DNA from: Bacteriovoracaceae bacterium
GTDB taxonomy: Bacteria > Bdellovibrionota > Bacteriovoracia > Bacteriovoracales > Bacteriovoracaceae
Direction of reading: 5' to 3'
NCBI GenBank assembly: GCA_025210745.1
Contig: JAOARC010000037.1
Span: forward strand, 447,440 to 511,439
Length of the DNA stretch: 64,000 nucleotides
Below the pieces are notes generated by a model. The model did not search any database and was not told the origin of the DNA. It saw nothing but the letters and a program-made list of their open reading frames with translations. The position numbers and the translations under genes were made by a program. Positions 1 to 58,896 of this stretch are shown here, piece after piece. Numbering within the stretch: position 1 is the stretch's first letter; each line of letters starts with the position of its first letter.

Positions 1-1
1 C

Positions 2-874: not shown

Positions 875-893
875 ATAAATTTTAAGGTTTTAT

Positions 894-1970: not shown

Positions 1971-1983
1971 GTGGAGATATATT

Positions 1984-3363: not shown

Positions 3364-3405
3364 GAATAATTGATGATTTGATGCATATACTGTTAGAATA
3401 TAACT

Positions 3406-4530: not shown

Positions 4531-4535
4531 TTTGC

Positions 4536-7774: not shown

Positions 7775-7783
7775 GATTTATTT

Positions 7784-8512: not shown

Positions 8513-8611
8513 CCAGACCTCTACGATTATAATAGGGTGCAATATTTTCCCTATAGTTTGCAGAATGATTCTGTATATATCAATTGATATGAAATGAGGA
8601 AGGAATCTCAA

Positions 8612-9844: not shown

Positions 9845-9854
9845 GGAGAATACT

Positions 9855-18371: not shown

Positions 18372-19076
18372 ATGGAAAACTTTGATATTGATGATATTTT
18401 AAACCAAGATGAACTTTTTAAACCTATTACAAAGGGCCTTGGGTTTCATCATTCTTTAAAAGAAAAAAGTAAAGTGGTTACTAGCTTAAAAGAAAAGTCT
18501 GAAGACTTAAGGGCTGATCTTGCACTGAAAGCAAGAAGTATTGAGCTAGAAAAGATGAAAAAAACTCCTAAGTTAGATATCGAACAAAAGTTTGATATGG
18601 GAGAACTAAATCCATTTTATGAATCTAATGATGAAGTTAAATCAGAAGTTAAAATTGAAGAGTTTAAAGAAGAAACTTTAGAAGCAGATATTACTAGAAA
18701 GTTTTTATGTTCAATTGTAGATACATCTTTGTTTTCTATTATGTTAGCTGCTTGTATATTTGTAAGTAGCTTAATAATGGATATATCTTTTGAGCAATTA
18801 AAGTTTTTAACAACAGACCCATTTAATAACATTTTATTATTTACTTTAGTTGGTATGATCTATTCACTTTCTTTTTCATTTTTAGAAAGAGCTAATATTG
18901 ATACTGTTGGAAAGAATCTATTTAACTTATCTGTTGTTAGTACAAATGATAAATTATCTTTTAAGAACCTGATTGTTAGAAATGCGTTAGGGTACTTATC
19001 AGTCTTTACTTTAGGTTTAATATCATTATTAAAGATAAACTCTAAACTTTCTATGACAAAGCTAGTACACAAATGA
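18372..19076 (+). CDS. RDD-family-like membrane protein with charged N-terminal region
   Basis: C-terminal half [13 protein letters not shown]...[32 protein letters not shown] fits the RDD pattern by eye. 3-4 TM segments. Confidence 0.5.
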
Positions 19077-19531
19077 GCTTTTCTGAAAATTTAAAAAATT
19101 TTATTAAAGAAAATAAAGATAAGACCATTGTTTTTACTAATGGATGTTTTGATATTTTGCATAGGGGACATGTAGCTTATCTAAATGAGGCTAAATCACT
19201 TGGACAGGCTTTAGTTGTAGGATTAAATAGTGATGCAAGTGTTAAGCGTTTAAAAGGTGAAACTAGACCTATTAATAGTGAACTTGATAGAAAGTTTGTT
19301 TTAGAAAATTTATCTAGTGTAGATTTTGTAGAAATTTTTGAAGATGATACACCGTTATCATTAATTAAAGAGGTTACTCCAAATATCCTTGTTAAAGGAG
19401 GGGATTGGGAGATTGATCAAATTGTTGGCGCAGATTTTGTATTAGAAAATAATGGCCAAGTCTTCTCATTAAACTTTGTAGATGGTTATTCTACAACAAA
19501 TATTATTGAAAAATCTAAATTACATTCTTAA
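19073..19531 (+). CDS. D-glycero-beta-D-manno-heptose-1-phosphate adenylyltransferase-like (RfaE domain II / HldC-type cytidylyltransferase fold), stand-alone
   Basis: [17 protein letters not shown] nucleotidyltransferase motif, [12 protein letters not shown]. 152 aa, no kinase domain. Confidence 0.8.
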
Positions 19532-19741: not shown

Positions 19742-20578
19742 ATGGGCTTAAGAATTAGAACAAATGTAGCTGCTCAAGCAGTACAAAAAAACTTAAGAAA
19801 TGTTGATAGGCAATCCAGTGAGAGCTTTCAAAAGCTAGCTTCTGGTAAAAGAATTGTTAAAGCAGCAGATGATGCAGCTGGTTTAGCGATATCTTCTAAG
19901 ATGGAAGCTGAAATTAGAGGTAATAGAATGGCCTTGAAAAATACTGGTGATGCTATTTCAGTTGTTCAAATCGCTGAGGGTGGGTTGACTGAAACATCAA
20001 ATATTATGACTCGTTTAAGAGAACTTTCTATTCAAGCGGCATCTGATACGGTTGGAGATAAAGAAAGAGAGTTCTTAGACTTAGAATATCAGCAACTTGT
20101 TCAAGAAGTTGATAGGATCTCTAAAACGACTAAGTTTGGAGATGTAGAGTTATTATCAGGTGAAAATGAGACGGGAGAGATGGAATTTCATGTAGGTGCA
20201 TATGGAGATGAATTAAATAAAATTAAATTCGATTCAGAGTATACTGATGCGACGGCATCAAATCTAGGAGTTGAGGGAACAGGAATTTCTTCAAAGTCAG
20301 ATGCTATTGATAACTTAGAGGCAATTGATAATGCTATTCAAAAAGTTTCTGGATTTAGGGCCAACTTTGGTGCGATTCAATCAAGATTACAGACAACTGC
20401 TGTTAATTTAGATTCACAAATTACTAATACAGAGGCGGCGAAGTCACAAATTCAAGACGTTGATGTAGCGGCAGAATCATCTAAAATTGCTAGTAATAAT
20501 GTATTTAAGCAAGCAGCAACTTCAGTTCTTGCTCAAGCTAATAATATACCTAATACAGCACTGAGATTGATTGGGTAA
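19742..20578 (+). CDS. fliC: flagellin (short, 278 aa)
   Basis: N-terminal MGLRIRTNVAAQAVQKNL...LASGKRI..AADDAAGLAIS, C-terminal QANNIPNTALRLIG. SD AAGGAGA. Confidence 0.9.
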   Translation: MGLRIRTNVAAQAVQKNLRNVDRQSSESFQKLASGKRIVKAADDAAGLAISSKMEAEIRGNRMALKNTGDAISVVQIAEGGLTETSNIMTRLRELSIQAASDTVGDKEREFLDLEYQQLVQEVDRISKTTKFGDVELLSGENETGEMEFHVGAYGDELNKIKFDSEYTDATASNLGVEGTGISSKSDAIDNLEAIDNAIQKVSGFRANFGAIQSRLQTTAVNLDSQITNTEAAKSQIQDVDVAAESSKIASNNVFKQAATSVLAQANNIPNTALRLIG

Positions 20579-20654
20579 TTAAATATAAGTATAATAACAA
20601 TCTTAAGCCTCCTTCCCCCTTAGGCATAGACCTTTGGGGGAAATAAAAGGCAAA

Positions 20655-21413
20655 ATGAAAATTATGAAACCAAGTAATAAATTACAGCAAACTACAGATA
20701 GAGCAATGATAGAAAGCTTTATCTGTAACACGAAGCAAGATCAAAGATCTGTTTTGGCATGGAAATTTGTTGATGGAAAAAAAGTTACGGTAAAGGTTTA
20801 TATAAGAGTTATTAGATTATTTAAAAGTGAATTTGTTATTAAAGCAAAATCCTCTAATGATCAGCAGTTATTTGATGACTTAACTGTTGGTTCTCAAGAA
20901 ATTAATATTTTTTTTCCTGATGATGTTGTTATTTTTAGGACAAAAATAAAGTCTAGAGATAATTACTTAAAAGATATTACTTTAGGTATTCCAAGTTCAA
21001 TAGCATTAATAAACAGAAGAAAATCTCTTCGTTATGTTATAGGGGATGACAAGGATGTTTCAATACATTTTTTCAAGGAAAAAAGTGTATTATTTGATTC
21101 ATTTCAAAGGTTTGAAAAGCCAAGCTTTGATATTAGTACTGGAGGAATTTCATTTATAGTATCTAGGACAGAAAAAAAGATGTTTAGTGGTGATGATATT
21201 ATTGGAAACTTAGAAGTTGAAATTGCTGATAAACGAATAAATGTGATGGCACAAGTCGTAAATGTTTATGAGATTAACCCAGATGAAAGAAATGATTTTA
21301 TGTATAAAAGCTATAAAGTTTCTTTGAAGTTTTTATCTTTGTTGGAAGAAGACAAAGATATTATTGATAGTTATATTCTAGAGAAAATTTCATTAAATAA
21401 AGATGTTTCATAA
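20655..21413 (+). CDS. PilZ-domain (c-di-GMP-binding) protein
   Basis: RRKSLRY (RxxxR) followed by DISTGGISF (DxSxxG). First ATG is 20655; the track start 20634 is TTG. Confidence 0.7.
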   Translation: MKIMKPSNKLQQTTDRAMIESFICNTKQDQRSVLAWKFVDGKKVTVKVYIRVIRLFKSEFVIKAKSSNDQQLFDDLTVGSQEINIFFPDDVVIFRTKIKSRDNYLKDITLGIPSSIALINRRKSLRYVIGDDKDVSIHFFKEKSVLFDSFQRFEKPSFDISTGGISFIVSRTEKKMFSGDDIIGNLEVEIADKRINVMAQVVNVYEINPDERNDFMYKSYKVSLKFLSLLEEDKDIIDSYILEKISLNKDVS

Positions 21414-22154: not shown

Positions 22155-23032
22155 TTTCTGCCGTGAACTAGCTTTTCTTTTAAGATATTAAAATATTCTC
22201 TTTCTTTATTTTTGATAAAACGGATTGTTTTATTTGAATCTTTAAAGACTGTTATATCTGAACTTTTAGAAATCTTTATTGCCACTTGGCCATCAATAGT
22301 TGCGATTGCATCTTCTGTATTATCTAGAATACTAACTTTGAGTTCTAAATAGTCGGGTAGGACAAGAGGTCTGTGTGTAAGTGAATGAGGACAAACAGGA
22401 GTTACAATAAAAGCATTTAGTCCTGGATGAACAAGAGGTCCTCCAGCGGCTAGAGAATATGCAGTTGATCCTGTTGGAGAACTTATGATTAGTCCATCAC
22501 CAGATAAATTATAAATATGTTCTTGCGAACTTTCTATCGATAGATTTAGCATTCTAGCAATATTATTTTTATTAAAAACAACATCGTTTAAAAATGAATA
22601 TGTTTGACCATTAATTTTTAAGGTATAAAGTTGATGGCTTTCAAAAACAAAGTGACCTGCAAATACTGCATTCAGTTCTTCATAAAATTCTGTTTTTTGA
22701 AATTCCGTAATAAAACCTAGTCGACCCATATTGATACCAAAAACAGGTATTGAAGAAGGTATGTCACGGGTTAAGCCTAGTAGTGTACCATCACCCCCCA
22801 TAGAAATAGCAAGATCAATACTTGAAAAAAATTGATCTTTTTCTAAAAAGTGAACTTTATCAAGTGTTTTATTTGTTGTAATAGAAAGAAGTCTTTTTTG
22901 CTCGGAGGATAATAAAAAAATATTTTTATCTCTTTTTGAAAGCCAACGAACCAAATTTGTAACAATATTACCAAGATCATCAAATGTCGTTGGCTTGAGA
23001 ATAATTCCTATATTATTGAAAGTACTATTCAT
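22151..23032 (-). CDS. nadK: NAD(+) kinase
   Basis: GGDGTLLG, NDVV, SPTGSTAYSLAAGGP. Confidence 0.85.
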   Translation of the reverse strand: MNSTFNNIGIILKPTTFDDLGNIVTNLVRWLSKRDKNIFLLSSEQKRLLSITTNKTLDKVHFLEKDQFFSSIDLAISMGGDGTLLGLTRDIPSSIPVFGINMGRLGFITEFQKTEFYEELNAVFAGHFVFESHQLYTLKINGQTYSFLNDVVFNKNNIARMLNLSIESSQEHIYNLSGDGLIISSPTGSTAYSLAAGGPLVHPGLNAFIVTPVCPHSLTHRPLVLPDYLELKVSILDNTEDAIATIDGQVAIKISKSSDITVFKDSNKTIRFIKNKEREYFNILKEKLVHGRN

Positions 23033-23396
23033 CTTTTTTACCTTCTATAATTGTATTTATTGCTGATCTTATATCTTCGAATGGCTTATTTAGTATGAGA
23101 CAGTTATATTTTTTAGCTTTTTCAATAACTTGTTCAGAAGAATATGCAGTTATAATTATAAAAATGTTGCTAATTTGATTATTTGTAAATATAGATTTCA
23201 TTTCTTCTATGATATCAAAGCCAGTGATATCTTTTAACATCAGATCGCAAACAACTCTTTCATACTTGTTAGTTTTAAGTAAATTAATTGCTTCCTTTCC
23301 TTGAGTTGCAGTATCCACATTAATATCAAATTTTTCTAAAAGTTTTTTTAGAGATTGTTGTATTAAAATTTCATCTTCTATAATTAAAACATTCAT
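23025..23396 (-). CDS. single-domain response regulator (CheY-like receiver)
   Basis: LIIEDE, phospho-acceptor context VVCDLMLKD, LNKPF. 123 aa, no output domain. Confidence 0.8.
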   Translation of the reverse strand: MNVLIIEDEILIQQSLKKLLEKFDINVDTATQGKEAINLLKTNKYERVVCDLMLKDITGFDIIEEMKSIFTNNQISNIFIIITAYSSEQVIEKAKKYNCLILNKPFEDIRSAINTIIEGKKDE

Positions 23397-25003
23397 GTTT
23401 TTAGCTCTAATCTAAAGTGAGCTCCATTTTTGTGAGGTAAAACAAACAAATTACCTCCGAGCTTTTTTGCAAGACTTTTTGATATAGACAAGCCTAAGCC
23501 AGTCCCACTATTTTTAGTTGTAAAAAAACTATCGAAAATATTTTGCATTTGATTTTGATCTATACCTGGGCCATTGTCAATGAAGTCAATAGTGATTTTA
23601 CTTTTATCATCACAAAAGGTTATGTTTAATGTTGGACTTTTTATTGACTCACAAGCTTGAGTCGTATTAAGAATAAGATTGAAGAAAATCTGAGCCAACC
23701 ACGTTTGATTAGTACTAATTTTAAGATTGTCTTTATCGTATTTACTAAGATTAAAAGTATATATTTTTTTTATTCTTTTTGATTCACTTTTTGTTAGGGT
23801 AAAGACTTCTTCTAGTATGCTTAATAAGTTACATTCTTCAAAAGTTGTTTTGTCATTAAATAGAGCTTGGAAATTATTAATAATCTTTTGACATCTTTTA
23901 GTATTAATATTGATTTCTCTTAAAAATGTTATTTGATCTTCTTCAAGGTTTTCTAATAAAAGAAGTTCGCTAGATAATTGCAATCCAAAAAGAGGGTTAC
24001 TAAGTTCATGTTTTAATGTATTGAGCAGGTCGCCAAGTAAACTTACTCTTTCTTTATGGTGAAGTTCTGTTTGATTAATAAGTTTTTGAGGACTTAAATT
24101 AACTTCAAATATTTTGTTATCAATCTCAATTTCTTTTGTATTTGCTTCATATTCTGTGTAAGAATCCTTCTTCCTTATAGGAAAAATTGAATTTGAAATT
24201 ATATTTTTAAAGAAGTCTTGATTGTTTTTCTTGTAATCTTGTTTGAGATAGAAGTGTATGAATAATGGTATAAAATGAATAAGTATTTTAAAGGAGTCTT
24301 TTTCTTCTGGCGCTTGAGGTAGAAAGTCATTTCGACTCAAGAGGATTATAAAGCTATAGTGCTTATAGCTAAATTCATGTGCCAAAAAAGTTCCTAGTAT
24401 ATTAAATACATCACCCTTGATCTCTTTTTCACCATAAGAGCGATTTTTTGATTTTTTTACAGAGTTAAACAAATCAGTATAATTTTTTATAGGAATTTCT
24501 GAAGCTCTGATAATTTGTCTTCCAAACTCTTGATGTAGAGATCTTAACTTTCCCTTTTCATGAGAGATTAAATGAAAACTTGTAAATTGTTTGAATTGTT
24601 TGATTTTTAATATAAGCTTACAAAAATCTTCTAGAGAGTCACTTATACTAAAGGCATTATAAATATCACTTATGAGGACATATTGATTAGACCACTCTTT
24701 GTAATCTGTTATGAGTTTTTTAAATGAATGTATTTTTTTCTTCTTCTGTCTGTTGCTTTTATTAATTAGCATAAGAGAAGACCTTAAAATATTATTTAAG
24801 CTAATATTTTGGGGAACTTTTATTGTTGATTCTGAGTATGTTAAGGAAATTACATTATTAGTTTTTTGAATATGAATAGTATTTTTTCCATTACAAAAAT
24901 CTTTTAAATAGTTATAAAAAGTTTCTTTGTGTATAGAGTTGTCTATTTCAAATCTTAAAGACTGTTTATATTTTTGATAAATGGAATTGCTTGTATTTTC
25001 CAT
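23393..25003 (-). CDS. sensor histidine kinase, apparently cytoplasmic, with uncharacterised ~310-aa N-terminal region
   Basis: H-box LKHELSNPL, N-box FFNLILNTTQA, DNGPGI, GTGLGLSISK. No convincing TM segment. Confidence 0.8.
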   Translation of the reverse strand: MENTSNSIYQKYKQSLRFEIDNSIHKETFYNYLKDFCNGKNTIHIQKTNNVISLTYSESTIKVPQNISLNNILRSSLMLINKSNRQKKKKIHSFKKLITDYKEWSNQYVLISDIYNAFSISDSLEDFCKLILKIKQFKQFTSFHLISHEKGKLRSLHQEFGRQIIRASEIPIKNYTDLFNSVKKSKNRSYGEKEIKGDVFNILGTFLAHEFSYKHYSFIILLSRNDFLPQAPEEKDSFKILIHFIPLFIHFYLKQDYKKNNQDFFKNIISNSIFPIRKKDSYTEYEANTKEIEIDNKIFEVNLSPQKLINQTELHHKERVSLLGDLLNTLKHELSNPLFGLQLSSELLLLENLEEDQITFLREININTKRCQKIINNFQALFNDKTTFEECNLLSILEEVFTLTKSESKRIKKIYTFNLSKYDKDNLKISTNQTWLAQIFFNLILNTTQACESIKSPTLNITFCDDKSKITIDFIDNGPGIDQNQMQNIFDSFFTTKNSGTGLGLSISKSLAKKLGGNLFVLPHKNGAHFRLELKT

Positions 25004-25575
25004 TGTGTTAGATTATCTTTAAGCTCATATTCTAGCAAGTCAGTAAGCATAATATTGTCATGGTTTTTATTGGCAATATTAATACCCTTAACAATTGATA
25101 GTAAGTGTATTTCTAATTCTTTTATACTAAAACCATTGGCCTGCTTTATATCATTGTTTATACTTAGAGCTTTATGAAGCTGTCCAATGAGTTGTATTGT
25201 AAGATCAATATTTTCAATGATATTTGCAAGAATAATTTTTGCATTATGAAACTTTTGTTTATTTATAGATAGACAACATTTATTAATATTATTTAGAATT
25301 TTGTCTAGATGTTGCGGGATGAAGTCTAAGCTTTCTTGAACAATACTACTGCGCTTAGAGTATATAATATTAATATTAGAATTATTATCAATTTTCTGTT
25401 CTAAAAAATCTTTATTTTCTTTGAAAGTGATCACTTTTTGATCAAAAATAATTTTTGAAATAAATTCATCTTTTTTTAAGTAAAGATCCTTAATTGTGGG
25501 AATTAGCTCTGAAATAGTTCTATAGTTAGAAATATTGATATCTTTATCAATATGATTAAGTTGTATTTGTGGCAT
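24955..25575 (-). CDS. hypothetical protein (206 aa) of the fliD-operon accessory module
   Basis: GGGGG SD precedes ATG 25575 (MPQIQL...); the track start 25611 overlaps the upstream gene. No family recognised. 49-nt overlap with the kinase start. Confidence 0.5.
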   Translation of the reverse strand: MPQIQLNHIDKDINISNYRTISELIPTIKDLYLKKDEFISKIIFDQKVITFKENKDFLEQKIDNNSNINIIYSKRSSIVQESLDFIPQHLDKILNNINKCCLSINKQKFHNAKIILANIIENIDLTIQLIGQLHKALSINNDIKQANGFSIKELEIHLLSIVKGINIANKNHDNIMLTDLLEYELKDNLTQWKIQAIPFIKNINSL

Positions 25576-25588
25576 CTTGCCCCCTAAG

Positions 25589-27238
25589 TTAAACATCCTT
25601 GTTAGCACCACTTATTATTTTGGGCCCTAAAGTCGAATTAGTCAAATCTTCAATAAGAGCAATAAAATTTTGAGCTTCATAGAATGAAATAAGGTTGTTT
25701 TGAGTTATTTCAAATATATTAGATCCTTTAGAGTTTAGACGATTGACATAAAAGAAATCAGCAAAGGGTTTTAATAGTTTATAATTGCTTGTAGTAATAT
25801 CAATTAACTTATCAATTTCATCAAGTTTTTTTACGTTTTCTTTTATTAGAGTTTTATCTTTTCGTTTATGATCAATTTGTTCTAAAATTGTATTGCAAGT
25901 ATTAATACCATGTAGATAGAGCTCTGTGAGATATGTATAACCATCTGTAAGAATAGAAAGAGTATTAATTGCTTCTTGAGATAACTTTGGCGGATTTATA
26001 TTAAGTTCTATTTTTGATAGATGATAAGCCCAAGCAAGTCGAGAGAAGGTTTTTATTGTTGCTTGCGAGCTAAGCTTTGTACCACATAAGTTCTCATTGA
26101 AAATACCAAATTGATCGAATGATGATTTTAAAATATTAACATTGGTTAATAGAAACATATTAACATTTTCAGAAATATTTTTTGAATTAATGGTATGTTC
26201 TTTAAGATATATATTTGTTAGGGAACAAATAAGTGCTGGTGTAATGTCTTTTTTACATGGAAGCTCAGAGCATTTACTCTTTGAATTACAGGGAGCGCAT
26301 ACTCTATTAGAAACAAGAGTAATTACTTTGTCACTATATGCAGTTGTCTGATCTGGTTTTACTGGACCTAAAGAAACAATAATAGAATTTAATTCAGCTA
26401 TTGCTGCTAGATGAGAAACCATAGAGTCATGGCCGAGAAAAATTTTAGATCTTAAAAGTAAATCAAAAGTATCTTGTATACTGTTTTTACCTAAGCAATT
26501 AATAATTCTGTCTTTATATTTATTTATAAGAGGACGAGATGTCATCATTTTGTTATAAGATGTTAACTCACTAGATGTTCCAACCACAGCGACTTTATAA
26601 GTGGGAAAATCTTGTAATAATCGAATAATTGTCTCAGCCCAATCTTCACTTTTCCACATCTTTTTTTGATGAGAAGCAAAAGGATGTATAGTAATGATAT
26701 TTTCTTTTATAACTTCTTCGTGATATCTAAAGCCGTGTGCTAGTTTGGCACCTAGTGTATGTTTGAAAATATCAACGAGATTAAATGGACTATAATCAAC
26801 ATCTAGAACATTTGAATAGACGAATTGACTCCACTTATCATCAATTGCGATTTGACCATGACTATTGATATAAGGCCCCATTTTTACTTTAGCATCAATT
26901 AGAGAAAGAATATGAGCTGATGAACGACTAAAAGAAAAGTTTACGGCGAGATTAAATTTTTTATGATTTACTTCTTGAAAAAATGACGACATGATATCAA
27001 GTGATTGATGGACGGTTAAGTTTTTAACTCTTGGAACAAAGTCTTGCGTGTCAAAAAGAATAATGTCGTCAAAAACATTTTCTAATAAAAAAAGTAAGCC
27101 TGAAGCCATTTTTCTACGTGCAACTAGAGTTAAAGAGATATTTTTGTTTTCTAACTTGAGCTGTCTTGCAGCTTGGTAAGTTTGAAGTATGTCTCCAATT
27201 CTAGTTGTTTGAATAATACAAATATTTAATTTATTCAC
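25589..27238 (-). CDS. glycosyltransferase family 9 (heptosyltransferase-like) protein with ~200-aa C-terminal helical extension
   Basis: ICIIQTTRIGDILQTYQAARQLK, HQKKMWKSEDWAETI, GHDSMVSHLAAIA, Cys cluster VCAPCNSKSKCSELPC. GTG start preceded by AAGGAAG. Confidence 0.7.
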   Translation of the reverse strand: MNKLNICIIQTTRIGDILQTYQAARQLKLENKNISLTLVARRKMASGLLFLLENVFDDIILFDTQDFVPRVKNLTVHQSLDIMSSFFQEVNHKKFNLAVNFSFSRSSAHILSLIDAKVKMGPYINSHGQIAIDDKWSQFVYSNVLDVDYSPFNLVDIFKHTLGAKLAHGFRYHEEVIKENIITIHPFASHQKKMWKSEDWAETIIRLLQDFPTYKVAVVGTSSELTSYNKMMTSRPLINKYKDRIINCLGKNSIQDTFDLLLRSKIFLGHDSMVSHLAAIAELNSIIVSLGPVKPDQTTAYSDKVITLVSNRVCAPCNSKSKCSELPCKKDITPALICSLTNIYLKEHTINSKNISENVNMFLLTNVNILKSSFDQFGIFNENLCGTKLSSQATIKTFSRLAWAYHLSKIELNINPPKLSQEAINTLSILTDGYTYLTELYLHGINTCNTILEQIDHKRKDKTLIKENVKKLDEIDKLIDITTSNYKLLKPFADFFYVNRLNSKGSNIFEITQNNLISFYEAQNFIALIEDLTNSTLGPKIISGANKDV

Positions 27239-27368
27239 TTCTTCCTTCTTCTTGAATTAGCTCCGACAGCAAAAGTAGTTGAATGTCTTTAGAGTCCAGC
27301 ATTTTATTGAGAGATAGTTTTTCATTTATTTCTTTTAGTTTATTTTCAATTTCAGTTTTATAACTCAT
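27231..27368 (-). CDS. unannotated 45-codon ORF bridging the two GT9-like genes (MSYKTEIENKLKEINEKLSLNKMLDSKDIQLLLLSELIQEEGRSE)
   Basis: Hand-translated. Its ATG lies 8 nt before the upstream stop and its TAA overlaps the downstream GTG start (AGTGAATAA). It fills the only >100-nt gap in an otherwise tightly coupled operon. Confidence 0.45.
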   Translation of the reverse strand: MSYKTEIENKLKEINEKLSLNKMLDSKDIQLLLLSELIQEEGRSE

Positions 27369-28929
27369 GTTTAACACCTGTATTTAATTTTAGAATAGGC
27401 GAAGAGAGCTGATCAAGTACCGTCGTTAGTTTTTGTAAATCACTTTTTAGGTTGAATATTTCATTTTCTATAAAGCTTAAATTTTCTTCTTCTTGCTCAC
27501 TTGGTATATTTTCTAGTCTACCTTCAAAAAGATTGTGACAAGCAGCTGTAACAGAGTTTGTCGAGCCAATAAAGATTAAATTGTCTAAATGTCCAATGAA
27601 ATTTTGCAAGTTCGTATCGCTACTATTTGCAACGTTTAATGAACGTATAGCGTTAAGTAATATTCTTATAGAAGAAGAAACTTCTTTTCTAGATTCCATA
27701 AGATATTCTTCTATCTGAGAGTAAGATAAATTCTTTTTAAGATGAGTGATCAAATCTGGGTTACTTTGTTTTCCACAAATTAAATTGTGATAGTATCTCG
27801 TTACTATATAACCAAGTTCTGTTTTTAGATCTATTGGACCATTAATTTGTGTTCTTGTGATACCAAAATCATCTTCGATTGTTTGAAAAGATTTGTTGAG
27901 AAACTCTAATTTATTAATAGATATTTCTAAGTCAAGTTCTTGGTTTAATATGAAAAAGATATCGTTGTGCAAAGTCTCTGGGGTAAGAGACTCTACTATA
28001 AAGTTATCTTCTTTGATAATATTACTTTTTGTGTTATTTTCGATAACCTCAATCACTTTACAATCAAGATTATCTGCAATCATTAGAGTTGCGTTTGATT
28101 GAGATATTAAAAAATCAATATTAATTAAAACACTTGGTAGTGCATCAAGAGTATAGTTTATACTTAATAGATTATTACTAAAATATGAATTAAGTTTATT
28201 AATTGTATCAATTTCAGTGGTTTTTCCCGATGTTAAAAGTACAACTTTAGTGTTTTCACATAATTCTAGCTCTTCTATAGTTGACTTTAAAACGTTGATA
28301 TTCCATTTTTGACCAGAGAAAGAATGAGAAAGGTCTATTCCAATGACTTTCAATCCACTAGTTTTTAAAGGTGCAAATTTCTTAGCTGCAATTAAAGAGA
28401 GTTTTTCGTTTATTTTTATTCCACTTTTTTCATTTGTGTTTTTTAGATTGCAAATATTCATCTTAATTTGATGTTTTCCAATAAAATGTTCTTTAGACTT
28501 TGGAAGATGAAAGTTTTGGTAGTTTGCCCATGAATTATTAGTTAGAGGGTTCCCTTTTTGACTAATAGTCGTTCCAATTTTTTCATTAGCATTTAAGTAG
28601 GAACATATATAGGAACTTGTTAGATCATTTGAATAATTTATTACTTGATCCCATTGGATATCTTTAATTTGTGAAATGACATCAAAAAAAGAATTAAGAG
28701 CAAAAGCGTTACTGTAAAGAGGGTTTTCTAAGTCAGACTTAATACTTTGTTCATTTAAAAGATAAATATTGTTAACATCTTTTATTAAATGAGAATATTT
28801 CTCATTTCTTTCATAACAAAGAAGGTGTATTTGACTGTGAGGCTCGTTTTGTTTTAGTGCGCTAATAAAATTTGCACATCCAATAATATCGCTTGAACCA
28901 CTTAATACCGTAAGTAATATTTTTTTCAT
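27358..28929 (-). CDS. GT9-like paralogue, probably degenerate, with C-terminal helical extension
   Basis: KILLTVLSGSSDIIGCANFISALK N-terminus and SGQKWNINVLKSTI resemble GT9. Same size and architecture as 25589..27238, but lacks the Cys cluster and the DS..H motif. Confidence 0.5.
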   Translation of the reverse strand: MKKILLTVLSGSSDIIGCANFISALKQNEPHSQIHLLCYERNEKYSHLIKDVNNIYLLNEQSIKSDLENPLYSNAFALNSFFDVISQIKDIQWDQVINYSNDLTSSYICSYLNANEKIGTTISQKGNPLTNNSWANYQNFHLPKSKEHFIGKHQIKMNICNLKNTNEKSGIKINEKLSLIAAKKFAPLKTSGLKVIGIDLSHSFSGQKWNINVLKSTIEELELCENTKVVLLTSGKTTEIDTINKLNSYFSNNLLSINYTLDALPSVLINIDFLISQSNATLMIADNLDCKVIEVIENNTKSNIIKEDNFIVESLTPETLHNDIFFILNQELDLEISINKLEFLNKSFQTIEDDFGITRTQINGPIDLKTELGYIVTRYYHNLICGKQSNPDLITHLKKNLSYSQIEEYLMESRKEVSSSIRILLNAIRSLNVANSSDTNLQNFIGHLDNLIFIGSTNSVTAACHNLFEGRLENIPSEQEEENLSFIENEIFNLKSDLQKLTTVLDQLSSPILKLNTGVKHEL

Positions 28930-29567
28930 ATAATAACCTGCTTATTTCGGATAGAGTCGATTGCTAAAAGTGCAAATTCGAAGTTGTTAGTAACTCCTGT
29001 TTGAGTTGTTATTTTTTCTATGACATCGTCAAAACTTTGATTCTGGTACATCTTGAGATGTTGTTTAACATCGATATTATGTACAAGACGAGAAAAGTCT
29101 TGGATTAGCTGTGGTGCTTGATATTTTAAAATGCCTTGGAAAAAGTCATGATATAAAGAGTACGAATTTTCGTGTTTGATAATAGCAGGTTTTGTCTTTA
29201 AGAATTTAACAAATTCAATATTTTCAAAAAGCTCTGAAGTATTCTTTGGGTTAAGAATTTTAATGTCTGATCTCAATCCTTTGAGCCTTTTAAAGTCATT
29301 AATAACTTGTGAGTTTGGTTCAATCACAATGATACTAATTTTTTTATCACCAGCAATTTTAATTATTTCATCGATATGATAGGCAAAGCCTAGCCCTAAA
29401 ATTAAGAAAGAGTTGTTTTCAATAATTGCATTTTGATATTGATTAATTTGTGACTTTGCTTCGATTACAGGGTTGTATATTGAATGAAGATGGACTCCCG
29501 ATATAATAGGAACAAGGTCTCCATTTCTTGCTTTTTTTAACTCATATGTAAGCTCATTTAAATTCAT
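28926..29567 (-). CDS. hypothetical protein, resembles the N-terminal domain of Maf/DUF115-type flagellin glycosyltransferases
   Basis: VHLHSIYNPVIEAKSQ and FLILGLGFAYHI recalled as the Maf N-domain pattern (memory only). ATGA overlap with the next gene. Confidence 0.4.
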   Translation of the reverse strand: MNLNELTYELKKARNGDLVPIISGVHLHSIYNPVIEAKSQINQYQNAIIENNSFLILGLGFAYHIDEIIKIAGDKKISIIVIEPNSQVINDFKRLKGLRSDIKILNPKNTSELFENIEFVKFLKTKPAIIKHENSYSLYHDFFQGILKYQAPQLIQDFSRLVHNIDVKQHLKMYQNQSFDDVIEKITTQTGVTNNFEFALLAIDSIRNKQVII

Positions 29568-29578
29568 ATATCCTTCTT

Positions 29579-29971
29579 TTACTTTGTATTATTGAGATTA
29601 TAACCTTTAAAGCTTTCTTTATTCTTATGCATTTTTGCAATTTCAATTTTAGCATTTAACTTTTCTTTACTAAGATAATTTAGAATATCGTTATCAAACC
29701 TTTTGATCTTATTAAGAAAATTATAAATTTCATCTTTTAAATTATCTGTACAAATATTTTTGTCTTCAAATGACAGTTGGAGCGATTTGAAAATATTTAT
29801 TAGTTGGGATCTTTTTTCAAGCTCAATAAGTAGATCTGTTAATTTTTCCTCATAAATAAACTGCTTGCATATAGCCGTACTTTCTACGATCTTTTCAATG
29901 ACTTGATAGTAAAGTTCAAATATTTTTTCTTTGTTATTTATTTGGTTGCGCTTTAAGACTTTTGATTGCAT
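29579..29971 (-). CDS. small helical protein in the fliT position (possible flagellar chaperone)
   Basis: 130 aa, follows fliS with a 38-nt overlap. Call is by position and predicted helical character only. Confidence 0.35.
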   Translation of the reverse strand: MQSKVLKRNQINNKEKIFELYYQVIEKIVESTAICKQFIYEEKLTDLLIELEKRSQLINIFKSLQLSFEDKNICTDNLKDEIYNFLNKIKRFDNDILNYLSKEKLNAKIEIAKMHKNKESFKGYNLNNTK

Positions 29972-30320
29972 CCGTCCATCCTTGATATAGTGTATTTAAA
30001 ACTCCTAGACATCCTTCTAGAGGCTCTTTTTCAATTTTAATATTTGCCTGTGTGCTTGCATGTAAAATATAGTCGTATAAAGAAGAAAGTTCTTTGGCTA
30101 CTTCTCCACCAACTTCATAGTCTAGGCTATTATGTAATTCAATGATGATATCTTGAAATTTACCAACATATTCACCTTTTTTGGCTATATCATTGTTTTC
30201 AATTGCTTCAATTGCTTTTTTACAATTCTTAATAGCAGCTTGATAAAGCATGATAAGAATTTGTTCTTTACTCGCTGTTTGTACAGATGTTTTTTTGTAG
30301 GCACCTAATCCGTAACTCAT
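29934..30320 (-). CDS. fliS: flagellin-specific chaperone FliS
   Basis: AYKKTSVQTASKEQILIMLYQAAIK...LSSLYDYI, typical FliS four-helix pattern. 128 aa, directly after fliD. Confidence 0.85.
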   Translation of the reverse strand: MSYGLGAYKKTSVQTASKEQILIMLYQAAIKNCKKAIEAIENNDIAKKGEYVGKFQDIIIELHNSLDYEVGGEVAKELSSLYDYILHASTQANIKIEKEPLEGCLGVLNTLYQGWTDAIKSLKAQPNK

Positions 30321-30336
30321 TTATAACTCCTTTTTA

Positions 30337-31713
30337 CTATAGTGCAGGGCCAGCTGGAACGCCTCCTAGCCCTGCTCCTTGTCCTTTTATTCTTGTTATT
30401 GTTTCTTCAAGTCTTGCAAACTTTTGCTTTAGCATTTCTTCTTTTCGATCAATTTGTCTTTGTTTACTTTCGATTCTTCTATCTATTTGATCAATTTGGC
30501 TTTTTAAACCTCTATCTCTTGATTTGAGAATACCGCCATTAGAACTAAGAGCGGCATTGATAACATCTTCCATGTTATCCATAAACCCTTTAAGTTTTCC
30601 ATCCTCTTTGGTATATTTTCCTGCTATAATTTGAGCAACGACTTCATAGTTTTTCTTTAGGGCGCTTTCAAACTTTTCACTATCAAGCTTTAACAAACCA
30701 CTTCTTTGAAAAGTTAATCCAAGATCTCCGATCCTTTTATTTCCAAAGTCTGTTTTGATATTTTTAAATATTGCACCTCTTATTCTACTTTCTAATGTTT
30801 GTAGAGTAAGATCCCCACCAAGTGTTTGTGATGTATCGACCGTTTCATCTAGCGTATTTTGTTCTTTAATAAACTTTAGAACCTCATTAACATTTTTTAC
30901 GAGGTCATCAATTTTTCCAGCAATTTTTCCATTATCTTCAGCAACTTCTATAGCTATTTCTTCACCGGGCTTTGCCTTTTTAAAATCCAAAGAAACACCT
31001 GGAATAAGATCAGTTGTTTCATTTTTGGGAAGTTCAATTTCAAATCCATCTAATTTAATTTTAGCATCTTGAGCATCTCTATGTCCTTCAAACCATATAT
31101 CTTCCATACCATCAACGAGATAAAGATCTGGAAACTTTGCTTTTTTATCATCACCTGTTTCAGAAAGAGTAATAAGAAGTTTCCAGGGTGTATCTGAGCC
31201 ATCACCTGAATTAACAACAGTAGCATTCATTCCATTAGAAGAATCTTTATTAATTAATTTTGCAATACCAGATAGAGACGAGTTTTCTGAATCAATATAA
31301 ACTTCTTTAGTTTCTCCATTTGGTAATTCATATTGTAAATACCCAACACCAAGATATGTTTCATCTTTATCCTCAACACCATTTGATATTGCAGATGATT
31401 TTTGTGCCAATTGAACAACTTCCACTTGGTAATTTCCAGGGTTTGCTAAATTTTTATCGACAGAAGCACCTATTGTTCCAGTGTCACTAACGTTTATTTT
31501 AAGTTCTCTAAAGCTTCGAGAAGATTTATTAGCAAAGATATTTCCTCTAATGGCTTCAACTTTTTGAGTTAAATCGGATAGGAGCTTTTTTTTATTTCCA
31601 ATTTTTGCTTTTCTAGTTTCCATTTGTTGCAATGGGATCTTTTCAGCAGCAATAATCTGCTCGACAATATTTTTAGGTAAGCCTGAATTTATTGGTCCAA
31701 ACGCAATTGCCAA
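30337..31713 (-). CDS. fliD: flagellar filament cap protein FliD
   Basis: N-terminal (M)AIAFGPINSGLPKNIVEQIIAAEKIPL and C-terminal coiled coil. AGGAGG lies 3-4 nt before TTG 31713; the track GTG 31749 lacks an SD. Confidence 0.85.
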   Translation of the reverse strand: MAIAFGPINSGLPKNIVEQIIAAEKIPLQQMETRKAKIGNKKKLLSDLTQKVEAIRGNIFANKSSRSFRELKINVSDTGTIGASVDKNLANPGNYQVEVVQLAQKSSAISNGVEDKDETYLGVGYLQYELPNGETKEVYIDSENSSLSGIAKLINKDSSNGMNATVVNSGDGSDTPWKLLITLSETGDDKKAKFPDLYLVDGMEDIWFEGHRDAQDAKIKLDGFEIELPKNETTDLIPGVSLDFKKAKPGEEIAIEVAEDNGKIAGKIDDLVKNVNEVLKFIKEQNTLDETVDTSQTLGGDLTLQTLESRIRGAIFKNIKTDFGNKRIGDLGLTFQRSGLLKLDSEKFESALKKNYEVVAQIIAGKYTKEDGKLKGFMDNMEDVINAALSSNGGILKSRDRGLKSQIDQIDRRIESKQRQIDRKEEMLKQKFARLEETITRIKGQGAGLGGVPAGPAL

Positions 31714-31834
31714 TTGTCCTCCTGACAAGCTAAGTAGAGCATCTTGCACTACTGGGGCATTCTAATTATAGAATATCATAGGAAGAATTTGATGCAATAG
31801 GGAACAATTTGGGTTAAGATTAGGAACTAACATT

Positions 31835-31862
31835 AAAAAAAATGGCCCTTGGGGAGGGCCAT
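31835..31862 (-). terminator. orphan intrinsic terminator on the minus strand, in the divergent fliD / membrane-protein intergenic region
   Basis: Minus strand reads ATGGCCCT-CCCCA-AGGGCCAT-TTTTTTTT: perfect 8-bp stem, 5-nt loop, 8 U. No minus-strand CDS lies upstream of it. Confidence 0.55.
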
Positions 31863-31913
31863 TAATGGATTAGGATAATAGGATTTAAGAGTATTGCAAA
31901 ACTCTTACTAAAC

Positions 31914-33461
31914 TTGTCGGGTATTGTGGTGGAAACTTTAGTAAAAAGATCAGATATTATAAGAGAAAAGTATAAATTCTTTATAAATCGAATAGTTACG
32001 TACCTTATTTTTTTATTCATACCAATATATATTGAAAAGATAAGTGAATGGAATATCTTGAATCAGTCAATAATAGTTATTGTCTATATGTTTTTTATGG
32101 GCGGCCAATGGTACTTGTTAGGTAAAGAAGTAGATCATCGACTTAAAATATATTATAAGGCAAATTCTTCCATCGAAAGAGTGTTATACCGACTAATTTT
32201 AGGAAATATACTTACAATACTTTTATTTAATATCTTTTCTATTTTTACTCCTAATATATACGAGTATCTTTTTTGGGGATTCTTTTTTGTCGTAGCTTTG
32301 TTTTATTCATGGCCAACAAGAGGAAAAATAATTGAAGAGTCTATAAGTGGTCAATTTGGTGAATATAGGTTTTTGGATTCTTTTGAAAGAACAGTTTTAC
32401 TTTTAAGTACTGCAATGGTTCTTTTTTCTATTCCTGAAATTCCTCTTTTTGAAAATAGTGAGGGGCTAAAGTTATACCTAGATTCGGAAGAAAAAATTCA
32501 TTTTTATTTATGGAACTTTTTAAGTGTTAATTATGTTCCATTTGCATCTTATCCAAAACTTTTTAATCTAGCGTGGAACTTTCATTTTTATATATGGGGA
32601 GTAGGTTTTTTCCTTACAGCTTTTTATGCTTTATTAAGATACTTTTTTTCTCGTCGACTTTCTATAATGGGAGTTTTTGCTATTGTATCAACTTGGACTT
32701 TTTCATTATTATTAAATGAAAATATTCTCTATGCTATAAATAGTAGCTATGTTGTTATCTGGATTTGGAGTACAATTTGGTCTATAAAAAGTTCTACTTA
32801 TAGAACAGGGCTTTTTACCGGTTTAGTTCTAGCTTATGGGGTTATGATAAATTATAATTATATATGGCTAATGCCATTAACTCTTATTTTTTCTTATTTT
32901 TATTTACTAAAAGACAAAACAAATTGGTATAAAAAGCAATGGGTGAAATACAACTCGTTTGGAATTATTTTGTCTGTACTTTTGTATATTGTTCACAACT
33001 CTTATTCCGTAATTTTATTTGATATTAGAATAGAAGGTCTTTTAAAAACATTTGAGCAATATATTGAAAGAAAAGCTTTCTTTAGTTTATTTACTGTTGG
33101 TGTATTAATGAGCTGTGCTTTATTTTTTAAACCACTTAATAAAAAGTTAAGCTCAATTAACTTTGATTTGAGAAGTTATAAGAATATACTCTCATTATTT
33201 TTTATTAACCTTCTAGTTGGGCTTATAGTAGAACCAAGTTTATATTTTGGTTTTAATAGTATTTGGTTTATAGCATTTTTATGTCTTATACCTCTAGAGT
33301 GGATTTTTCAGTCTATTTCGAGGCAACGCTCGAAAAGAAATATCATTTTTGTAATTTATATATTGGTTTGCTTATTAGATTCTCATTTTGAAGAAAGAGT
33401 AAAGTTAGCAGCTAAAATGTTTTTCAAAGAATCAATAACAAAGTATATCGATCAGATGTAA
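31914..33461 (+). CDS. polytopic integral membrane protein of unknown function (>=12 predicted TM segments)
   Basis: Long aromatic-rich hydrophobic segments throughout. TTG start uncertain. No catalytic motif recognised. Confidence 0.55.
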   Translation: MSGIVVETLVKRSDIIREKYKFFINRIVTYLIFLFIPIYIEKISEWNILNQSIIVIVYMFFMGGQWYLLGKEVDHRLKIYYKANSSIERVLYRLILGNILTILLFNIFSIFTPNIYEYLFWGFFFVVALFYSWPTRGKIIEESISGQFGEYRFLDSFERTVLLLSTAMVLFSIPEIPLFENSEGLKLYLDSEEKIHFYLWNFLSVNYVPFASYPKLFNLAWNFHFYIWGVGFFLTAFYALLRYFFSRRLSIMGVFAIVSTWTFSLLLNENILYAINSSYVVIWIWSTIWSIKSSTYRTGLFTGLVLAYGVMINYNYIWLMPLTLIFSYFYLLKDKTNWYKKQWVKYNSFGIILSVLLYIVHNSYSVILFDIRIEGLLKTFEQYIERKAFFSLFTVGVLMSCALFFKPLNKKLSSINFDLRSYKNILSLFFINLLVGLIVEPSLYFGFNSIWFIAFLCLIPLEWIFQSISRQRSKRNIIFVIYILVCLLDSHFEERVKLAAKMFFKESITKYIDQM

Positions 33462-34677: not shown

Positions 34678-34771
34678 TTCAAAAATGAAATAAATATAAA
34701 TTTAAGGTTTAAAAAGTACAAATATTAAACCACTAAGTTTAAAAACACTTCTACCAAATTAAGGAGTGTAT

Positions 34772-35680
34772 ATGCTTAAAAGACATCAATTAAATCAAAT
34801 AAACTCATCTCTTTTACTTTTAGGAAAGCCTGGTGCTGGAAAAAGTTATCTTGCAAAAATTGTTCATGAAGAATCTAGTCGAAAAGATCATCCTTTTGTT
34901 CATGTAAATATTTGTGCCTTAAATAAAGAAACCTTTGAAAGTGAATTGTTTGGTCATGTTAAGGGAAGTTTTACTGGAGCTATTAATGATAATGAAGGTT
35001 ATTTAGGACGAGTAAATAAAGGAACACTATTTTTAGACGAAATTGGCGATTTAAGTTTAGAGCTTCAGTCAAAAGTATTAATGTTGCTTGAAGAAAAGAT
35101 ATATTACAGAGTTGGTAGTTCAAGACCTATTAAGTTTGAAGGATCAATTATCTTAGCAACAAATAAAAACTTAGAGCAGATGGTAAAAGAAAATCAATTT
35201 AGAGATGATCTTCATAGTAGAATTTCTTTTTTTAATTATAAAGTTCCAACATTTAGTTCTAATAAAAATAAAAAACAAATAATTAATAGAATAATTTGTG
35301 ACTTAAAGAATAAAAGTTCTTCTGACTTTTTCTTCGAAAAAGAAGCATTAGAATTCATTTATAATTTAGAGCTGGGTGGAAATATAAGAGAGTTAAAAAA
35401 TATATTAGAGTATCTTGTATTATTTAATAAGCATATAAGGATATGTGATGTAAAAGCTATCTTAGAGGCCAAAGATAAATCATTGATAGACTATGATGAC
35501 TATTACGAGCATTTAGGTGTATTTGAAAAAGAATTTTTAATGAAAAAGTTGCAAAAGTACGATTATGGGATAAATCTCACTGCAAAAAAAACTAATATTA
35601 GTAAGGTAACTTTAATTTCAAAGATAAAAAAGTATGGTATTAATATAAAGGAGTTAAAAGAAAATAGATTAGTGAGTTAA
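34772..35680 (+). CDS. sigma-54-dependent transcriptional activator, AAA+ plus HTH only (no sensory or receiver domain)
   Basis: Walker A GKPGAGKS, GAFTGA-loop variant GSFTGA, Walker B LFLDEIGDL, C-terminal HTH NISKVTLISKIKKYGI. AAGGAG precedes ATG 34772. Confidence 0.8.
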   Translation: MLKRHQLNQINSSLLLLGKPGAGKSYLAKIVHEESSRKDHPFVHVNICALNKETFESELFGHVKGSFTGAINDNEGYLGRVNKGTLFLDEIGDLSLELQSKVLMLLEEKIYYRVGSSRPIKFEGSIILATNKNLEQMVKENQFRDDLHSRISFFNYKVPTFSSNKNKKQIINRIICDLKNKSSSDFFFEKEALEFIYNLELGGNIRELKNILEYLVLFNKHIRICDVKAILEAKDKSLIDYDDYYEHLGVFEKEFLMKKLQKYDYGINLTAKKTNISKVTLISKIKKYGINIKELKENRLVS

Positions 35681-58797: not shown

Positions 58798-58896
58798 GTA
58801 TTATAATATAAGTATGAGGCATAATACTTCTTATGTACTCAATAATTATTTTTAGGTTATTTACTTACTCTTAACGTTAAGTAAAAGGAGATGAAC

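Follow-up and report, generated by a model that had tools for sequence, protein, structure and literature searches.

Four genes inserted into the late flagellar operon fliD-fliS-fliT of a Bacteriovoracaceae bacterium may encode a cytoplasmic glycosyltransferase complex, probably a heptosyltransferase, that acts on proteins of the flagellar filament. The genes lie within a stretch of 64,000 nucleotides (hereafter the window; GenBank assembly GCA_025210745.1, contig JAOARC010000037.1, positions 447,440 to 511,439 of the forward strand). They encode a protein resembling the N-terminal domain of Maf flagellin glycosyltransferases (O5), two paralogous proteins of glycosyltransferase family GT9 (GT9-B and GT9-A) and, between these two, a micro-protein; a further gene, O1, follows. 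The arrangement is similar to that of Maf, with a GT9 core. We consider the chances that this interpretation is right to be about even.

An earlier sequence-only reading of the same DNA reported six chained minus-strand open reading frames (ORFs) between fliD-fliS and a kinase/regulator pair. ORF calling in the window confirmed all six, together with their coordinates, their spacings (-38 to +13 nucleotides) and their flanks, which are FliD and FliS upstream and the kinase, a receiver-only regulator and NAD kinase downstream. A scan of the minus strand from 31841 to 22457 found no terminator-like site. Given this and the tight spacing, fliD through NAD kinase reads as one packed array of 11 genes that spans roughly 9.6 kb. 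Its members, apart from NAD kinase, are as follows.

30337..31749, minus strand: fliD, filament cap, first gene of the array (PF07195, 152 bits; PF02465, 59 bits)
29934..30320, minus strand: fliS, flagellin export chaperone (PF02561, 129.8 bits; TIGR00208, 97.8 bits against a cutoff of 53.75)
29579..29971, minus strand: O6, FliT-like protein, 130 amino acids
28926..29567, minus strand: O5, Maf-N-like protein, 213 amino acids
27358..28929, minus strand: GT9-B, 523 amino acids
27231..27368 (or 27377), minus strand: micro-protein, 45 (or 48) amino acids
25589..27238, minus strand: GT9-A, 549 amino acids
24955..25575, minus strand: O1, 206 amino acids (the longest ORF starts at 25611)
23393..25003, minus strand: histidine kinase (HisKA/HATPase_c)
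23025..23396, minus strand: receiver-only response regulator (Response_reg)

Judged by sequence and predicted structure, GT9-A appears to be a true GT9 enzyme whose catalytic apparatus looks intact. It matches the Pfam family PF01075 at 51.8 bits (E value 9e-14; gathering score 22). Its AlphaFold2 model, made with 30 homologues, has a predicted local distance difference test (pLDDT) score of 89.9 and a predicted TM-score of 0.89. In the model, a GT-B fold occupies roughly the first 345 residues; it is followed by a Cys-rich loop of lower confidence, a small beta-hairpin region at residues 367-383 and a helical bundle at residues 391-537. The GT9 pattern noticed earlier in this ORF is thus borne out by both profile and fold, and the helical extension of about 200 amino acids is seen as a bundle in the model and is not present in WaaC or WaaF. 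Foldseek searches of the PDB place WaaF first (1psw, 2.5e-12), then WaaC and the Veillonella GT9 structure 3tov (to 5e-10), and TibC at 4.5e-7. Searches of PDB sequences with GT9-A and with its C-terminal bundle, either as single sequences or as profiles, returned nothing significant. The more specialized NCBIfam models for lipopolysaccharide (LPS) heptosyltransferases HepI, HepII and HepIII (TIGR02193, TIGR02195 and TIGR02201) give 31.3, 39.9 and 21.4 bits, compared with cutoffs of 185.3, 134.6 and 170.2. TIGR04414, the model for TibC and AAH, gives 17.8 bits and has a cutoff of 200.

The residues that are expected to bind the donor are strongly conserved in GT9-A. Escherichia coli WaaC and WaaF were aligned to the GT9-A family profile with hmmalign; MAFFT --add had mis-registered the C-lobe of WaaC. 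In the hmmalign alignment, D16, S189, K193, E/D224, D271, S272 and H276 of GT9-A correspond to D13, T188, K192, E222, D261, T262 and H266 of WaaC, and these positions are kept in 72-77 of the 77 orthologues. In HepI, D13 serves as the catalytic base, T188 and K192 are assigned to the phosphates and E222 to the ribose, and D261, T262 and H266 contact heptose hydroxyls and phosphate (bioRxiv 10.1101/2021.06.16.448588). Because every heptose-contacting residue of HepI is kept, the donor for GT9-A is probably ADP-heptose or a close analogue. In HepI, the basic residues R60, R63, K98, R120 and R189 bind Kdo2-lipid A. Of these, R63, R120 and R189 align with positions that are neither basic nor conserved in GT9-A. 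The equivalent of HepI R60 is a Lys in 43 of the 77 sequences, and a neighboring Lys at position 105 is common.

GT9-A also contains a cluster of four Cys residues with the spacing CX2CX5CX4C (C314, C317, C323 and C328), which forms a knuckle (residues 314-328) at the end of the C-lobe. This cluster had been pointed out in the sequence-only reading and is real, as it occurs in all 77 orthologues derived from the loci examined. In the alignments it is restricted to GT9-A and is not found in WaaC, WaaF or GT9-B, orthologues of which never have a Cys cluster. Its conservation pattern fits a predicted structural metal site. The loop is missing by deletion in 3 of 30 GT9-A homologues taken from databases. 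Three closely related proteins (P0004, P0009 and P0015) have cleanly deleted the four-Cys loop (approximately columns 360-380 of alignment A1) and retain all catalytic residues, so the knuckle appears to be dispensable in at least one lineage.

GT9-B is a true paralogue of GT9-A, because the hidden Markov models (HMMs) of the two families match each other. The copy in the window scores 21.6 bits with PF01075, which is 0.4 under the gathering score, and four of five orthologues that were scanned pass (27.8-45.2 bits). Two NCBIfam models of LPS heptosyltransferases give 18.4 and 32.8 bits, under their cutoffs, and a search of PDB sequences gave nothing significant. The protein ends in a putative C-terminal helical bundle of its own. 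Of 74 genomes, 46 encode a GT9-B with an unchanged catalytic signature, D-K-D-H. In the window, three of the four positions are replaced, giving D-Q-S-M. The proposal that this ORF is degenerate therefore holds for the present genome, but not for the clade as a whole. Eroded signatures are varied (DYSA, QSAV and NAPA in addition to the DQSM of the window) and are concentrated in the subclade nearest the window, yet the full length of the protein is always kept. Such erosion at full length looks like the signature of a retained pseudo-enzyme partner.

From the matches of its orthologues and its predicted fold, O5 appears to be a stand-alone protein that resembles the Maf N-domain, has a degenerate Rossmann fold and lacks the Maf catalytic domain; the term Maf-N-like is used here in preference to Maf N-domain. 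PF20157 (Maf_flag10_N) is a recurrent match, found with 20 of 29 O5 orthologues (best E value 4.6e-6), and one orthologue exceeds the gathering score of this family (26.7 versus 23.5 bits). Weak PRMT5 and methyltransferase matches also recur among the orthologues. The AlphaFold2 model of O5 (pLDDT 85.8) comprises an N-terminal beta-hairpin and four parallel strands with flanking helices, and the PDB folds that it matches best belong to spermidine synthases and class I methyltransferases (E value ~3e-4, TM-score ~0.46). The N-domain of Maf is described as Rossmann-like but degenerate, with four parallel strands, five helices and weak methyltransferase-like motifs (PMC11339370), and the predicted O5 fold agrees with this description. 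The possibility that O5 is an active relative of methyltransferases or spermidine synthases was rejected because the protein has only four strands and a Rossmann core of about 130 residues. The motifs LHSxYxPxxEA, GLGxxYH, EP and HPxS are invariant.

The MAF_flag10/DUF115 domain (PF01973) has no match in the six ORFs or in the sets of their orthologues. The sequence-only reading had noted a Maf N-terminal signature unaccompanied by DUF115; the absence of that domain is confirmed, and the resemblance is recovered through the orthologues, but is undetectable in the window copy. An exhaustive O5 profile search yielded 863 matches with E values of 1e-3 or better, including 186 at 1e-30 or better, and only in-clade proteins were among the matches listed; weaker relatives number about 600. 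The same was true of the matches listed for word-index searches with the O5 and O1 alignments.

The short ORF between the GT9 genes encodes a real, conserved micro-protein. It is found at the same position in 79 of 83 loci and shows conservation at the protein level (alignment A8). Its sequence contains an amphipathic helix, which is followed by LLLxSLxEEE and an acidic tail. Searches of Pfam and NCBIfam gave no family match.

The module is conserved throughout the Bacteriovoracia loci that were compared. A scan of one genome per species detected 110 relatives, from which 80 loci were fetched, and in total 83 loci were examined by ORF calling and iterated HMM searches. The gene order fliD, fliS, fliT, O5, GT9-B, micro-protein, GT9-A, O1, histidine kinase, response regulator, NAD kinase is found in 57 loci; 45 of them show it as labelled, and in the other 12 one GT9 copy had a better score with the model of the other paralogue. 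Most of the remaining loci have shortened versions of this order. The portion from fliD to O1 is essentially universal among those of the 83 loci that are long enough to show gene order. Median gaps are -14 to +19 nucleotides within the core and 122 nucleotides before O5. These results settle in the affirmative the earlier question of whether the module is kept beside fliDS in related genomes. Halobacteriovorax marinus is among the organisms that carry it.

GT9-A homologues recovered by word index are approximately 530-620 amino acids long and, except for three shortened entries, full length. Their source names are Bacteriovoracaceae, Halobacteriovorax, Bacteriovorax, Bdellovibrionales and metagenome-assembled genomes (MAGs) of Oligoflexia; the exception is one entry (P0080) labelled Deltaproteobacteria. 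Several public MAG records that bear this Bacteriovoracia-specific module (loci L009 and L075, proteins P0136 and P0144) are titled Flavobacteriaceae, Sulfitobacter, Alphaproteobacteria or Rhizobacter, and are probably mis-binned or mislabelled contigs.

The six ORFs do not form a single glycosylation module, as had been supposed, and this idea was rejected for O6 and probably also for O1. O6 appears to be an ordinary FliT-type chaperone that belongs to the fliD-fliS-fliT unit and lies outside the glycosylation core. Its gene is directly 3' of fliS, as in canonical fliDST operons, and 15 of 28 orthologues match PF05400 (FliT; best E value 7.2e-5), although the O6 of the window does not. The tail of the protein, EIAxxFKNKExFKGYNLN, is conserved. 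O1 is a helical protein that, through its orthologues, is assigned to the TP0873_N and DUF8042 families, and it has the invariant C-terminal motif DLLEYELxDNLTQWK. Nearly all of the 120 orthologues listed have a precomputed PF26154 (DUF8042) domain, and most also have PF27299 (TP0873_N). In Treponema pallidum, FliD is Tp0872 (PMC11387709), so that the TP0873 locus tag adjoins fliD in that organism. This suggests that O1 is a general fliD-linked flagellar accessory protein, which is more likely than membership in the glycosylation module. Literature searches on TP0873 and DUF8042 found nothing, and neither O6 nor O1 has a significant match among PDB sequences.

The kinase/regulator pair is probably also outside the core, as co-transcribed neighbors. 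The pair is syntenic in about 70 loci, but a divergent Oligoflexia MAG (L003) retains the otherwise intact series FliD-FliS-FliT-O5-GT9-B-micro-protein-GT9-A-O1 without it. The start of the kinase gene overlaps the end of O1 by 49 nucleotides, and the median across 71 loci is likewise -49. The conserved overlap would imply that translation of the two-component system is coupled to that of the late flagellar operon. About 320 amino acids at the N terminus of the kinase match no Pfam domain.

Two plus-strand genes elsewhere in the window are relevant to the possible donor and acceptor.

19073..19531, plus strand: hldC (RfaE domain II), heptose 1-phosphate adenylyltransferase (TIGR02199, 203.1 bits against a cutoff of 181.5)
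19742..20578, plus strand: flagellin, candidate acceptor, 278 amino acids, D0/D1 only (Flagellin_N, Flagellin_C)

The sequence-only reading drew attention to a heptose adenylyltransferase beside the flagellin gene. The identity of hldC is upheld by its score, and it adjoins the flagellin gene in all 32 related loci where this can be seen. However, the whole neighborhood, including NAD kinase, is syntenic in the clade, so the adjacency is weak evidence. The gene overlaps the upstream RDD gene by 4 nucleotides and is 210 nucleotides from fliC. A role for hldC in supplying donor to the module is possible, and the link is weak. Among the window genes tested, which were part of the ORFs of the window, neither gmhA, hldA and gmhB nor genes of a nonulosonic-acid (Pse/Leg) pathway were found. 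The flagellins of the clade are short: 88 that were analyzed have 270-309 amino acids, 71 of them in the 270s. In the central loop, positions 168 (85%), 171 (80%) and 180 (70%) are conserved as Ser or Thr, which is compatible with O-glycosylation and not diagnostic of it. A PilZ-domain protein (20634..21413, plus strand; PF07238, 27.1 bits) is encoded directly downstream of flagellin, a position that it keeps throughout the clade, and may be a brake or regulator that responds to cyclic di-GMP.

The analysis shows what the genes are, which folds and conserved residues their products have, and that the module is syntenic and packed like an operon; from this we infer complex formation, donor sugar, acceptor and timing. 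O5, GT9-B, the micro-protein and GT9-A would form a cytoplasmic protein O-glycosyltransferase complex that modifies filament proteins before their FliS/FliT-assisted export. The acceptors would likely be the short flagellins and possibly FliD. GT9-A would be the catalytic subunit. The catalytic residues of GT9-B have been lost in a whole subclade while the full length was kept, so they appear to be dispensable, and GT9-B is therefore probably a scaffold, or in many species a second transferase. O5, whose stop codon overlaps the start of GT9-B by 4 nucleotides, may supply a Maf-type degenerate Rossmann N-domain in trans and be translationally coupled to GT9-B. The C-terminal helical bundles of GT9-A and GT9-B would take the place of the Maf C-terminal bundle and are candidate modules for binding substrates or chaperones. 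With O5, a GT9 domain and helical bundles, the layout thus resembles Maf with its catalytic core exchanged for GT9. In the sequence-only reading, the locus was proposed to encode a GT9-based machine that heptosylates the filament or sheath by using a Maf-N-like adaptor. The genes and their synteny agree with that proposal, whose functional part is drawn from context.

Maf proteins, known from Campylobacter, Helicobacter, Aeromonas, Clostridium and Magnetospirillum, are likewise encoded with filament genes, and they act on flagellin in the cytoplasm. They consist of a degenerate Rossmann domain at the N terminus, a catalytic domain and a C-terminal bundle. Most O5 orthologues are homologous to the first of these at the level of Pfam. 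The bundle of Maf is helical and weakly resembles FliS and flagellin (PMC11339370). GT9-A and GT9-B also end in helical bundles, which does not imply homology to that of Maf. In contrast to Maf, the present system has a GT9 domain of GT-B fold instead of MAF_flag10/DUF115, and its N-domain is a separate polypeptide. It also has two paralogous subunits of catalytic type and a micro-protein, and no nonulosonic-acid genes among the window genes tested. In FlmG of Caulobacter, which is modular, a TPR domain recruits flagellin to the GT-B catalytic domain (PMC7591256). The layout of the module echoes this arrangement, but TPR repeats are not present here.

The BAHT enzymes TibC and AAH share the GT9 fold and transfer heptose from ADP-heptose to Ser residues of proteins. 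TibC, the only GT9 enzyme acting on proteins for which a structure exists, has an N-terminal beta-barrel, a beta-hairpin thumb and, in its C-lobe, an iron finger of four Cys residues (C339, C342, C358 and C370) that is used for dimerization and for recognition of the protein substrate (PMC4358343). The Cys knuckle of GT9-A has a comparable position in the C-lobe, without implying that the two are homologous, and TibC is the next-best group of structural matches of GT9-A after the LPS enzymes. GT9-A differs in the spacing of its Cys residues and in that no TibC-type beta-barrel is seen in its model, which begins at Rossmann strand 1 (residue 4). Also, TibC lacks the helical extension of 200 amino acids, and no autotransporter substrate is encoded near GT9-A.

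WaaC and WaaF provide the best fold matches (E value ~1e-12). In common with GT9-A, they have the catalytic Asp, a set of ADP-heptose-binding residues (Lys, Glu, Asp and His) and an organization as a tandem pair of genes. Unlike these enzymes, GT9-A scores far under the equivalog cutoffs, does not conserve R63, R120 and R189, has a Cys4 knuckle and a helical bundle, and is encoded in a flagellar operon next to a degenerate paralogue, GT9-B. By these sequence criteria, the system appears to fall outside Maf (it has no DUF115), BAHT (by its score and the lack of a beta-barrel) and HepI, HepII and HepIII (by their scores), and within GT9 in general.

Several observations weigh against a GT9 complex that glycosylates filament proteins. 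The O5 of the window matches no Pfam or NCBIfam family, including PF20157; the matches of its orthologues to that family cover only profile positions 59-146 of 228 (about 90); Maf (5MU5) does not appear among the 50 best fold matches of the O5 model; and a search of PDB sequences with the O5 profile did not reach Maf and found nothing significant. Profile-profile comparison detected no similarity between the bundles of GT9-A and GT9-B, and a comparison of the bundle sets with Pfam gave scattered chance matches and no family. The net charge of the N-domain of GT9-A (median +4) is not clearly distinct from those of WaaC (+7) and WaaF (+5). A tandem pair of GT9 genes is the classic HepI/HepII arrangement, and the characterized GT9 enzymes named by our searches are transferases of the LPS core, with the exception of TibC. 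The hldC gene is the last of a housekeeping array, prmA-rsmE-RDD-hldC. Genes that are unrelated to the module, encoding NAD kinase, the PilZ protein, a phosphoesterase and a RecN-like SMC_N/AAA ATPase, are equally syntenic, so that conservation of the wider neighborhood is uninformative by itself. Moreover, the flagella of Bacteriovorax are sheathed, and the sheath LPS of Bdellovibrio differs from the LPS of the cell body (PMC7175336). A lipid acceptor in the sheath is plausible because of the sheathed flagella.

Perhaps, then, the GT9 pair glycosylates an acceptor that is linked to lipid, namely the LPS inner core or a glycolipid specific to the membrane sheath of the flagellum. Expression with the late flagellar genes would make the LPS of the sheath differ, and O5, the micro-protein and O1 would be accessories for targeting or regulation. 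WaaF and WaaC as the best structural and sequence matches of GT9-A, a tandem arrangement that mimics waaF-waaC, the positive charge of the GT9-A N-domain and the distinct sheath LPS noted above all speak for this explanation, the most serious rival of the first, which we nonetheless regard as unlikely. GT9-A is far under the curated HepI, HepII and HepIII cutoffs, it does not conserve the three lipid-A-binding Arg residues of HepI, and its Cys4 cluster has a position comparable to that of TibC; at the level of sequence, these three features would favor filament proteins as the acceptors. The bundles of about 200 amino acids and the Cys4 knuckle are foreign to WaaC and WaaF; in TibC, a GT9 enzyme that modifies proteins, the iron finger with its four Cys residues is placed comparably. 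The presence of a partner that is Maf-N-like suggests protein substrates of the flagellin type, and the loss of GT9-B catalytic residues throughout a subclade would be poorly tolerated in a stepwise core pathway.

Two other explanations are less likely than either of these. In one, which we consider improbable, the module is mainly non-catalytic. The GT9 paralogues would be chaperone-like or regulatory scaffolds whose bundles bind FliD, flagellin, FliS or FliT, binding of a nucleotide sugar would be a metabolic signal, and O5 would be a ligand-sensing or methyltransferase-like subunit. GT9-B is indeed tolerated as a pseudo-enzyme, and the weak similarity of the Maf C-terminal bundle to FliS and flagellin (PMC11339370) is in keeping with such binding. 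O5 has also retained a GxG motif and, following strand 2, an acidic residue, as have proteins that bind nucleotides or S-adenosylmethionine, but its four strands are too few for an active class I methyltransferase. Similarly, co-transcription with the kinase/regulator pair would favor a regulatory role, but an otherwise intact module exists without that pair. That GT9-A retains every catalytic and donor-binding residue in 72-77 of 77 species suggests that catalysis is under selection. The remaining explanation, to which we assign slightly less weight still, is that the association with flagella is an accident of clade-wide synteny, and the GT9 pair serves an unrelated glycoconjugate, for example a capsule, a surface protein or an adhesin related to predation. 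This would fit the equal synteny of NAD kinase, the RecN-like ATPase and the phosphoesterase, and the absence of dedicated flagellar-sugar pathway genes among the window genes tested. However, the genes are inside the array from fliD to the regulator, in frames that overlap or nearly abut and without a terminator-like site, and the module is bracketed by proteins of flagellar type, with FliT upstream and O1 downstream. Also, the domain to which O5 is related is not known outside flagellin glycosyltransferases.

Further features of the window were observed. The DNA has a G+C content of approximately 30%, and a scan for sigma-70 promoters performed at chance level in the AT-rich DNA of the window. 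On visual inspection, nothing upstream of fliD looked like a convincing promoter for sigma-28 or sigma-54. A strong hairpin rich in G+C, AATGGCCCT-CCCCA-AGGGCCATT, with a run of eight T's after it, is located at 31841..31863 on the minus strand. It lies in the divergent intergenic region between the start of fliD (31749, minus strand) and a membrane-protein gene (31914, plus strand). Such a terminator-like element is unexpected in a divergent promoter region; the hairpin might belong to a 5' leader or mark where a small RNA ends. The membrane-protein gene (31914..33461, plus strand) encodes a polytopic protein of 515 amino acids that matches no Pfam or NCBIfam family, and its position is conserved in 65 related loci. 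A GT-C-like or sheath-related role is conceivable. Near the fliD operon, an AAA+ protein of 304 amino acids (34766..35680, plus strand) is a sigma-54 activator without a receiver or sensor domain; it occupies the same place in Halobacteriovorax marinus (L001).

The window begins with a complete cluster for division and cell-wall synthesis (1..11294, plus strand), which comprises mraY, murD, ftsW, murG, murC, murB, an ORF of 242 amino acids, ftsA and ftsZ. A MoxR/MadB-like AAA ATPase followed by BatA/BatB-like VWA-domain proteins (46289..49715, plus strand) is presumably a Bat-type operon like those of Leptospira and Bacteroides. A gene for a PilA-like type IV pilin is found at 58891..59556 (plus strand).

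Flagellin glycosylation is known to use Maf, FlmG, GT2-type enzymes and few others. Literature searches turned up no account of paired GT9 proteins that have helical extensions and a Cys4 knuckle and are encoded inside fliDST with a stand-alone Maf-N-like protein and a micro-protein. They also gave no work on the module in Bacteriovoracia, or on Halobacteriovorax in connection with a heptosyltransferase. The sequence-only reading was likewise aware of no described system of this kind, but GT9 genes have already been predicted in the context of flagellin. They are listed, as a bioinformatic prediction only and without mention of Maf, in the flag-2 glycosylation islands of enterobacteria (PMC6993521). 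Consequently, at the level of prediction, the presence of a GT9 gene near flagellin has a precedent. More tentatively, and with the odds somewhat against it, the module could represent an unrecognized class of heteromeric glycosyltransferases for flagellin or FliD in Bacteriovoracia, in which the Maf ground plan is combined with a GT9 heptosyltransferase core, a GT9-B partner that is a pseudo-enzyme in some lineages, and the acidic micro-protein of 45 amino acids.

If this proves true, GT9-A would, as far as we know, be without precedent among GT9 enzymes in being shown to glycosylate proteins of the flagellum, and the module would be the first system for heptosylation of proteins outside BAHT, a family specific to autotransporters. 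It would add a new enzyme class and heptose chemistry to flagellar biology, and protein heptosylation would no longer be confined to autotransporter adhesins. With its split but Maf-like layout, the module would be a natural experiment on the function of the enigmatic N- and C-terminal domains of Maf. In addition, an enzyme and pseudo-enzyme pair with lineage-specific erosion would offer a tidy system in which to study how glycosyltransferase paralogues turn into scaffolds. Fast swimming is central to the way in which Bacteriovoracia predators find their prey. Because the module is conserved across this class of fast-swimming predators, it likely matters for their biology.

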